This document shows, one piece after another, positions 30,801 through 33,800 of a stretch of 64,000 nt of DNA. Origin of the DNA: Lytechinus pictus (lineage: Eukaryota); NCBI RefSeq assembly GCF_037042905.1, contig NC_087251.1, positions 36,768,001 to 36,832,000 of the forward strand, written 5' to 3'. The notes beneath the pieces were generated by a model. It had not been told where the DNA came from. It saw nothing but the letters and a program-made list of their open reading frames with translations, and did no database searches. The position numbers and the translations under genes were made by a program. The stretch's first letter is position 1, and every line of letters begins with the position of its first letter.

Positions 30801-33800
30801 TTGACAAATAAAAATATCAATACATTGCATTATATTAATATGAATTACGTAGGAGTAAAAAGAGACAGGGAGAAAGCAAGCATCAACAAAGAGAGAGAGA
30901 GGGAGAGATAGAAAGAGACCAAGTGAGAGAGAGAGAAAGAAAGGAAGAAAGAAAGAAAGAAAAAAAGACAGGGATAGACAGAGAGACTAAGGAACAGAGA
31001 GAGAGACAGAGAAAAGAATGCTCCAACAATATATCTTATCTGTTTTTTCTGAACTTAAATCAATTAGATTGTTTTGGCTTTTGTGTGTTACACTGATAAA
31101 ACTATTACTTCTTGTAAACATTACCTGTTCATATGTATGAACTTCATCATTAAAAAGCATTGTGCAGTATACATCTGGTTTGCTCTTCCTGTATGTGTGA
31201 CAAAAACAAAACAGAAAGGAAATGAAAATGGGTAATAAAGACAAAAACTATGAAGGAGAGGAGATAGCAGCAATTGAAAAACTCATTCTGACCTTAATTT
31301 CTTCCTGCATTTAGCCGACATTACTAATGTCAATGAAAATCATGTAATAGATCCAAGATTGTTTCAACCATGGTGGTACATGTAAATGAGTACTACTTTC
31401 ACTGTCTTCTAATCACTATCTTCTATTTCATTTCCCAAATTATGGAGGAGTTGTGGTGAATTTTCAATTTCACAATTTTTGGTCCAAAGCCCACCCAGCA
31501 CACCATTTACACGTCAAGACTCTTATCCACATTTGCCACTCTTCACCCAGGCTTTCACTGGGTGACTGGTAGGACGGACATGCCCACTAAAAAGCAGAGG
31601 CTTGCATTTTGTGGGCTCCTCAACCAAACAATTTGTATTATTTTATTGCAATATTATTCCCTTCATTGGAAAACACATTACGATAACCTACTCATAGAGA
31701 TCAACTGCCAATGAAACTAAATTTTATGCTTCCCTTTTAGTGACAGGTTTCATCGTAAATCATTCAGATGTCTTCCATCGTAATAACATTAGAGCAACAC
31801 TAGCTGTAGCAAATTAGATTTCATTCATTTTGTAGCAAGAAGCATATCAGCAATAAATTGCAAATTAGCAATTAATTGGAAGACATACATGTATGATTGC
31901 TTTGGGGACCCCAAACACATTTGGAATCAATTGTAAGTTTCTTGCAACGCCCTGTAAGACTTACGATCCTTGAAGATCTTCCGGTATCTCCTTTGGTTCG
32001 TCCCAGAACAAGATATGATAGCAATGTCTAAAAAGCAGACAGAACTTTATCAACATGTTTTATAGAGAAAACGCAATTTTCATTCTTTTAATTGAAATAT
32101 TTTGCTTTCATTTGAACACACCTTTTAATGAAGACCACGTGCCTGTAAAGCTAAATCAAATATATCTCTAGCAGTCTTTGCAGACAGGTTTCACTGTGAA
32201 TTATTTGGATGTTTTTGATCTCGAGATCATGGAGAGAATGATCTAGGACTTACAATCCTTGAAGATCTTCGGGTATCTCTTTTGGTTCATCCAAGAACAA
32301 GATGTGATAACAATGTCTGAGTAGCAGACGGAACAACATCACAGCTCTTGCTTTTATTTCCTGAGGAAGGTTTTCCAGGGGATCCTGAAACATCAAAAAC
32401 ATATTAAGATGAGTTATAACCTCATTCATCTCAACAAATAAACTTCCTTTACAATATGCTCACTCCCAGAATGAGGTGTGGCTCCAAAAGCCTCTAGCCC
32501 TTATTCCTGCCTGTCAGCTCTGCTACAAACACATAATGATTTTAAACAAGATACCCAATGCCAGCTCTAAATGTTATAATTTACCGCCCCTTATATAGAC
32601 AATAATTGGGACAATAAACCAAAAACCAAGAACTGATATATGTTCTAATACGCAAATGCTTACAGTTGTCATGGATTTTTTTTTACTCCACATCCTCTAA
32701 GAGAAGCCCTGAAAATCATGAATTAATCAAAATCTGAGAAATAAAGCCATTTTAGAATGAAATAATTATATCCGATACAAAAATGTGAATTCAGAAATAT
32801 TATGCAGTTGTGTACCAAGAAATAAATACAGGCAAGTTTGTCTCCGTCATACCTATCAGGACCACATAAATACGTTCAACTTAGGAGAAATTTGACATCA
32901 ATAAAAGTACCGGTACATAACATATTTTTTCGCAAATCTGGTCTAAAAAAATTGCTTTGACTTGGGCCCACATTTGTCTCATGGAAGGTTGACTTTATGA
33001 AACTTCATCTGTATTGGGAGAAATTTTCAAGATTTTTCAATTTACCTGTTGGGGATGTGTGGCGGCCTGTGAATGAAGCTCACAGAATGGTTCCTGTTTC
33101 CATGCTTCTTCATCACCACAATCACAGTATCCTCCTCCACCTGATGTATTCATCTGAAATAGAAAGAGATGTTGATATCTTTGTGAATATCAATTACAAC
33201 ATCATCATCATTGTCTTGATTTTCATTTTCATCATGACCATACTCATTGCCATCATAATCATCATCATCATTACCTTGATCAACAAGATCATCATCCACC
33301 TCATAATCATCATTATCAAGAGCATCATCATCCTCATCACCACCATAATTACCACACTTATATTTATGATCGTCATTGTCGTCATCATCATCATCATCAT
33401 TATCATCATCATCATCATCATTATCATTATCATCATCATTAGGGCAATTCCATAGGTTGGTGGACATGAGCTTAAAAATTCAAATTCAATATATAGCCCA
33501 TCTGAACTGTACATTTTAATTGTGTTTGCCTTTATACAATATTGCTGGTTCTTTAATTGATGTTGAGGGCTTGAGGCAAGAAATGGAATGCATTTGTTTT
33601 TACATTTTTTGATTTACACAGCCCAAGCCAGATCTCGTACAGTTTAGTGAATACATTACCAATATACTGACCAATAAGTAAAAGAGAGGAGGAAACTTAT
33701 TCAGAATGTTACCTTTAAACATAAACTGGTGTCTGAAATCCTACTCATATTATTACAGAAACAGAAACATGAATCTTACACACATTATTGAATTTTTAGT

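Follow-up and report, generated by a model that had tools for sequence, protein, structure and literature searches.

Intron gain by tandem genomic duplication is a process for which a 2009 work of Gao and Lynch is reportedly cited. In amphioxus, tandem duplications of exon-intron boundaries have been described as mirages, in Adh3 and in the globin genes BflGb6 and BflGb9, and the model put forward in the available part of that article holds that the exonic part of such a unit becomes a real exon (PMC3087553). Unannotated duplicated exons are common in animals, according to the accessible portion of a second article (PMC9013439), and many young exons are restricted to particular tissues, frequently the testis, as stated in the part of a preprint that was at hand (bioRxiv 10.1101/009282). 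The event described here, in an urchin gene for an N-recognin of the UBR1/UBR2 type, is of a known kind, namely an exon-edge tandem duplication with a latent splice site, and exon birth by partial internal duplication is a described route. The literature within reach of the search, which lay outside most subscription journals, held no report of this copy or of urchin UBR1/2 splicing.

The window, a stretch of 64,000 nucleotides from Lytechinus pictus (contig NC_087251.1, positions 36,768,001 to 36,832,000), carries this gene on its minus strand. Protein records of L. pictus match the exons of the window almost letter for letter, and those of L. variegatus and S. purpuratus do so slightly less closely. 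The L. variegatus protein contains a zf-UBR domain (residues 95-162) and a ClpS domain (residues 218-296), followed by a winged helix and a PRT6_C domain, and the order of the host gene, with a UBR box, a ClpS-like domain, a winged helix and a C-terminal domain, is that of an N-recognin, as in yeast Ubr1 (PDB 7MEX) and human UBR2 (PDB 9wbv). No second urchin UBR1/2 paralogue appeared in the protein searches or in the protein cluster. Three coding exons frame the region of interest, all on the minus strand. Exon 5 (33046..33153) encodes the end of the UBR box, has a phase 0 donor and was located with named urchin proteins, by tblastn and by splice fitting; it is joined to exon 6 by seven reads over four RNA runs. 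Exon 6 (32254..32384; 131 nt, phase 0-2) was placed by protein match, splice fit and reads, and is a 100% match to the L. pictus and L. variegatus proteins. Exon 7 (31125..31188), identified by protein match, splice fit and domain search, encodes the start of the ClpS-like N-domain, the domain by which type-2 N-degrons are read, as set out in the available part of PMC11668491.

Several further features of the gene and of the window were observed. At position 33052, in exon 5, the window has G on the plus strand and every read of 4/4 runs has T, which reflects either a private variant or an assembly error. The exon at 4838-4491 (minus strand) encodes an acidic stretch that agrees with L. pictus record P0002 but lacks about 9-10 of the residues present in L. 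variegatus and in L. pictus record P0005, a difference that is likely an indel polymorphism. The first intron measures 17.6 kb (between 53639-53577 and 36005); record P0005 begins instead in an open stretch near 37025, inside this intron, which is probably a gene-model substitute. A large inverted arrangement of a tandem repeat of about 385 nt, with two inverted 500-nt copies that are 98.8% identical, occupies 56100-62060, and a further tandem repeat lies at the window end (63066-64000).

The original prediction held that the 3' half of exon 6 had been copied together with its GTAAGT donor, and comparison of the window with itself bears this out, with 31955-32045 aligning to 32244-32334 at 87% identity over 91 nt (E 1e-24). 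The duplication is larger than first noted: it is a tandem, same-strand copy that spans the exon-intron boundary and comprises the 3' half of exon 6, the donor and about 150 nt of intron. In the first copy, the last 63 nt of exon 6 (32316-32254, minus strand), which start just after a latent AG and are the source of the candidate exon, are followed by the GTAAGT donor and the first copy of the duplicated intron segment (32074..32253, minus strand). The second copy, on the same strand, begins with former coding sequence that now forms the polypyrimidine tract and AG of the candidate (32028..32045), and continues with the candidate 63-nt cassette exon itself (31965..32027), the copied and intact GTAAGT donor (31959..31964) and the second copy of the intron segment (31629..31779). 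Between the last two, the interval 31800..31952, to which no strand is assigned, holds about 150 nt that the first copy lacks, so that the offset between the copies rises from 289 to about 441-445; it is likely a later insertion of repeated DNA, and short pieces within it are matched by RNA reads from elsewhere.

The intron part aligns 32220-32074 with 31779-31629, with 100 of 139 columns identical and four gaps, at a score of 82, where none of 500 shuffles exceeded 42, and five other introns of the gene gave alignment scores at shuffle level. It is thus 72% identical with gaps, as against 89% (56/63) without gaps for the 63-nt exon part (Fisher P 0.011). Exon end, donor and part of the intron were thus duplicated together, in one tandem event, and the window contains only one extra copy of the exon 6 end and no multi-unit array. 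An assembly artefact or an allelic duplication was ruled out, as the intron parts are 28% apart and differ by gaps and an insertion. Constraint inherited from a paralogue or a divergent allele was likewise rejected: the 18 upstream copied bases carry four changes, two of them amino-acid changes in the frame of exon 6, hence the copy is old enough for decay to have set in.

The locus resembles the amphioxus mirages in that a 3' exon end, its donor and part of the intron were copied in tandem, in a unit of at most a few hundred bases, with the splice signals kept; it differs from them in holding one old copy, whereas the mirages form unstable arrays in the part of their description that is accessible. 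It is also similar to the "imprecise" intron gain or exon creation by tandem genomic duplication that the available text of PMC3443670 describes, in which a latent AG lies in duplicated coding sequence and nucleotides are added, with the difference that the skipping form stays the main message at the urchin locus, where use of the copy is only proposed. Precise intron gain under the AGGT model does not apply, as ACA stands after the AG in both copies and there is no AGGT proto-splice site. With tandem-duplicated mutually exclusive exons, as presented in the accessible sections of PMC9013439, the copy shares its position as a neighbouring homologous exon, its lack of annotation and its conservation at the protein level; unlike them it is half an exon, without the parent acceptor and with phase 2-2 against the 0-2 of exon 6, so that it could only be added after exon 6 and not swapped for it.

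As had been predicted, the 63-nt unit keeps the reading frame: it is preceded by AG and followed by GTAAGT, has phase 2-2 and no stop, and would add 21 residues. The count of five silent changes among the seven differences in 63 nt (TGT/TGC, CAC/CAT, GAT/GAC, AAA/AAG and CCC/CCG) was also correct, and the remaining two are TTG/TGG, which replaces Leu with Trp, and TT/TC at the junction codon. Because the intron segment was copied in the same event as the exon end, it can serve as an internal neutral clock, with 22 transitions, 17 transversions and 4 gaps giving a K2P distance of 0.36 (95% range 0.24-0.50, Jukes-Cantor correction). Neutral evolution was simulated with exon 6 constrained (omega 0.05) and the copy free, in 4000 runs per K. 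For this single locus, picked after the fact for its pattern and offering seven unpolarised differences, the neutral expectation at K 0.36 is 6.8-7.0 amino-acid differences in 20 whole codons and one is seen (P(<=1) 0.002-0.004, or about 0.01-0.017 if the junction change is counted as a second amino-acid difference). At K 0.27 the same probability is 0.010-0.016, and at K 0.20, a value that falls below the 95% range of the clock, it is 0.04-0.055. A within-exon test that is free of the clock gave P 0.013 for at least five silent changes given six differences in 20 codons (4750 runs), and under an omega of 0.05-0.2 for the copy the observed state is ordinary, with a probability of exactly one difference of 0.30-0.37.

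Two further signs are weak, namely that the 63-nt exon part holds no indel, for which the neutral chance is 0.35, and that the sole missense change lands on the modal residue of the family, as 6% of random missense changes would. Silent divergence of the copy, with five changes at about 13 sites, is not below the 28% of the intron, and recent gene conversion is therefore unlikely as the source of the exon similarity, silent sites being as diverged as the intron. Judged from the sequence comparisons, it is likely that the copy has at some point been constrained at the protein level. The co-duplicated intron provides the locus with a neutral clock of its own, which allows a selection test from one genome.

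The statement that vertebrates have Trp at the position where the copy has it was accurate for human UBR2 (PDB 9wbv chain A), and Trp is found there in 74 of 86 distinct homologue segments (from 125/126 proteins). Leu occurs instead in S. purpuratus, both Lytechinus species, both Diadema species, a brittle star and a further, 86%-identical protein. Retention of Trp as an ancestral residue was considered and rejected: since Leu is present in all echinoids seen and residues peculiar to Lytechinus are common to exon 6 and the copy, the Trp of the copy is best read as a derived single-base change to the wider family consensus. At the junction codon, the copy carries the first bases of a Ser codon, in line with the Ser of S. 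purpuratus, and exon 6 of both Lytechinus species carries those of a Leu codon. As judged from proteins only, the duplication appears older than the split of L. pictus and L. variegatus, because the copy keeps a Ser codon start that has changed to Leu in both, and it is probably later than the split from Strongylocentrotus, because the copy shares the Lytechinus-only residues. No look-alike window was found in other genomes, and a search of metagenome contigs with a short degenerate pattern for the copy gave 0 matches.

The acceptor of the copy had been called strong, which overstates it. According to crude splice models built on 30 donors and 30 acceptors of the gene, with 7 mis-fitted of 37 pairs left out, the AG at 32029-32028 is a moderate acceptor that falls in the lower range of the real sites of the gene in both models. 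In the pooled model it scores 2.4 and the latent site of exon 6 scores 0.2; the value of the copy is above 7 of the 30 real acceptors and is reached by 5% of 1873 decoy AGs. The per-position matrix gives 1.9 for the copy and 3.0 for the latent site, which puts the copy above 1 of 30 real acceptors, level with 15% of decoys and sixth among the 56 AGs of its intron, where stronger, unused AGs exist. The 18 copied bases ahead of the AG differ from exon 6 at four positions, each time by a change to T, as against one change to T among seven after it (P 0.015 for a pattern spotted post hoc), and the 70 nt upstream of the acceptor show no clear branch-point motif. The donor at 31964-31959 is the commonest donor hexamer of the gene, GTAAGT being present at 8 of 30 real donors and at 10 of 2115 intronic GTs, the candidate's included. 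The candidate has the usable AG/GT boundaries of a cassette exon.

Short neural exons of the eMIC/SRRM type are characterized by UGC near the 3' site, a long AG-free zone and a strong CUAAY branch point, as given in the part of the preprint that was available (bioRxiv 10.1101/2021.02.24.432780). Assignment of the candidate to this type was rejected, as the signature is mostly absent: another AG lies 18 nt upstream, no CTAAY occurs in 70 nt, and the TGC about 10 nt upstream of the candidate is inherited from exon 6. Elsewhere in intron 6, a 21-nt open stretch at 32142-32122 (minus strand) has phase 2-2, an acceptor above 24 of the 30 real ones and a fair donor; it has no reads, is not kept in the second intron copy and is possibly a pseudo-exon.

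Four raw RNA runs of 2026 were searched, three from the organism with the reads closest to the window and one from a relative, each read at 6-25%, with an exon depth of only 1-4. Depth over 31976-32047 was 0 in 4/4 runs. The junctions by which inclusion was to be recognized (32254>32027 and 31965>31188) were not seen in this very shallow sample, in which none of the three reads leaving exon 6 includes the copy and all continue into exon 7; one of these reads is from run X21, of the organism closest to the window, and two are from X24, of the relative, and together they bound inclusion below about 63%. The joint of exons 6 and 7 was derived from bin depths, with fewer than three reads a run: the 11 letters in the bin with the end of exon 6 and the 4 in the bin with the start of exon 7 are what a direct joint gives when the shared G is assigned to exon 6, and a joint to the copy would give 10.

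The 21-residue insertion is present in 0/7 annotated proteins of the urchin cluster, which covers three urchin species, and is absent from the 23 echinoderm and hemichordate records checked. Two weak protein searches for an urchin fragment with the repeat found none, at 77-2000 aa (1 match among 25 candidates) and at 188-601 aa (24 matches among 292 candidates). As 3/3 reads skip the copy and 0/7 annotated proteins carry it, constitutive inclusion is excluded, and the common message skips the copy. The claim that the copy is translated and under selection is accordingly divided: selection is backed by the intron clock and the within-exon simulation, and translation finds no read and no annotated protein. 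Differences between annotated isoforms were observed at equivalent or nearby positions in other echinoderms, with six residues at the equivalent of the exon 6/7 junction in Amphiura filiformis (P0010/P0129 vs P0130) and two residues near the exon 5/6 junction in Asterias (P0131/P0133 vs P0132/P0134).

Exon-edge copies were found at 2 of the 28 surveyed exons in the window. The second one, at 17580-17503 (minus strand), copies 17745-17668 with 72 of 78 bases identical, a GTAAGT donor and about 40 nt of intron also copied, and it retains an Ala, shared with L. variegatus and S. purpuratus, at a position that is Thr in the live exon. With its best acceptor the unit would be 43 nt long and shift the frame, and its two missense changes lie within what neutrality allows (P 0.11). 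An in-frame unit of 78 nt would result from a weak GAG at the left edge of the copy; as this GAG is aligned with an internal GT of the live exon, exchange of the 3' part of that exon for a piece of equal length is formally possible.

The reading that we tentatively put first, short of calling it probable, is that the copy at 31965..32027 is a minor or cell-type-restricted cassette exon of low inclusion that is used today. An old tandem duplication copied the 3' half of exon 6, the donor and some intron, and the AG that exon 6 already contained defines a 63-nt, frame-keeping unit in the copy. The latent AG may then have become a usable acceptor by the four changes to T, the copy would be joined to exon 6 in the messages of some cells, and missense changes would have been removed by selection on the inclusion isoform.

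It is rather unlikely, although a serious alternative, that the copy is neutral, an exon-edge duplicate of the mirage kind that splicing has always ignored, with a silent bias due to selection on exon 6 alone plus chance or to a slower rate in the exon part. The lack of any inclusion read or annotated isoform is what such a copy would give, the second copy at 17580-17503 shows a milder pattern without a good in-frame acceptor, and amphioxus mirages leave normal splicing undisturbed though many keep AG/GT, as far as the accessible part of PMC3087553 goes. However, the simulation already allows for selection on exon 6 and still yields P 0.002-0.016 with the clock and 0.013 within the exon, and the copy combines the absence of indels with an intact GTAAGT, an in-frame AG and a change to the consensus Trp. 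In contrast to the mirages, which the available text reports to be without effect on splicing, the urchin exon part shows a signal of protein-level selection when set against its own intron.

More doubtful is a relic, that is, a copy that the message included through much of its past, that selection kept harmless and that is silent by now. A latent acceptor and a strong donor would have made the copy usable from birth, and a relic would account for a selection signal together with absence from reads and annotation, as well as for an acceptor that is only moderate and lacks a clear branch point; yet no damage is seen so far, with frame, AG and GTAAGT all intact, and in the pooled model the acceptor has moved towards the consensus, not away from it. 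That the copy replaces part of exon 6, either from an internal donor after 32338 (phase 2) to the copy acceptor or from exon 5 to an AAG at 32046 (phase 0), is very improbable: both joints would keep the frame and coding constraint would follow naturally, but the internal donor has a score of 0.3 and the AAG acceptor one of -13.9/-7.0, lower than any of the 30 real sites, no GT stands at the matching point for a precise swap, the 22-residue scaffold helix would lose a part in either product, and reads cross exon 6 normally, so that with no credible internal donor in exon 6 or phase-0 acceptor in the copy, the copy can be added after exon 6 and not exchanged for it.

If the copy is a cassette exon, as we tentatively propose, its product can be placed on a structural model. 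An AlphaFold2 model of the N-terminal 938 residues of the S. purpuratus protein (mean pLDDT 85.5) matches yeast Ubr1 (PDB 7MEX) with E 1e-27 and places a helix at residues 179-200 and, after it, a loop (201-221) that leads to the first ClpS strand at 222. The counterpart of the copied peptide is S. purpuratus 195-214, which comprises the last six residues of the helix and an ordered loop with a near-invariant Leu/Ile-Pro-x-x-Leu motif, and the insertion point is in the length-variable part of the loop before the ClpS-like domain. The spacing from the Pro to the Phe of the ClpS motif is 12-77 residues in 192 of 197 distinct segments and 18 in the protein of the window; a loop as long as the insertion form would have is found in 6 of 192 segments, some of which may be gene-model errors. 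Since loop length varies across the family, an insertion at this point should be tolerable. No tandem repeat of the motif was found in homologue segments on inspection of the long-loop cases.

The proposal that inclusion lengthens the linker between the two recognition domains is thus apt as to the insertion point, which is in a loop of variable length, and incomplete as to the peptide, which also repeats the end of the scaffold helix and the conserved Pro/Leu motif. In the predicted inclusion isoform, the scaffold helix and the first motif would stay put, a second helix-end/Pro-Leu motif would sit in the loop, and the type-2 N-degron domain would be held on a longer tether. A more far-reaching reading, which we regard as quite improbable, is that some cell type carries two helix-end/Pro-Leu docking motifs that compete for one scaffold site, with the ClpS-like domain shifted by 21 residues, and that splicing in this way tunes type-2 against type-1 N-degron recognition.

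What the locus means depends on whether the copy is included anywhere. If it is included nowhere, it would caution against taking a low dN/dS in such copies as proof of use. If two docking motifs do compete, the new motif would bear the Trp that is common to most animals and lost in echinoids, and the exon-edge copies of this genome would be a standing source of new in-frame exons. If inclusion is confirmed, the locus would provide a concrete case of an exon-edge copy turned coding exon, as the amphioxus model proposes, and would mean that the one UBR1/2 of urchins has a splice variant just where its type-2 N-degron domain is entered.
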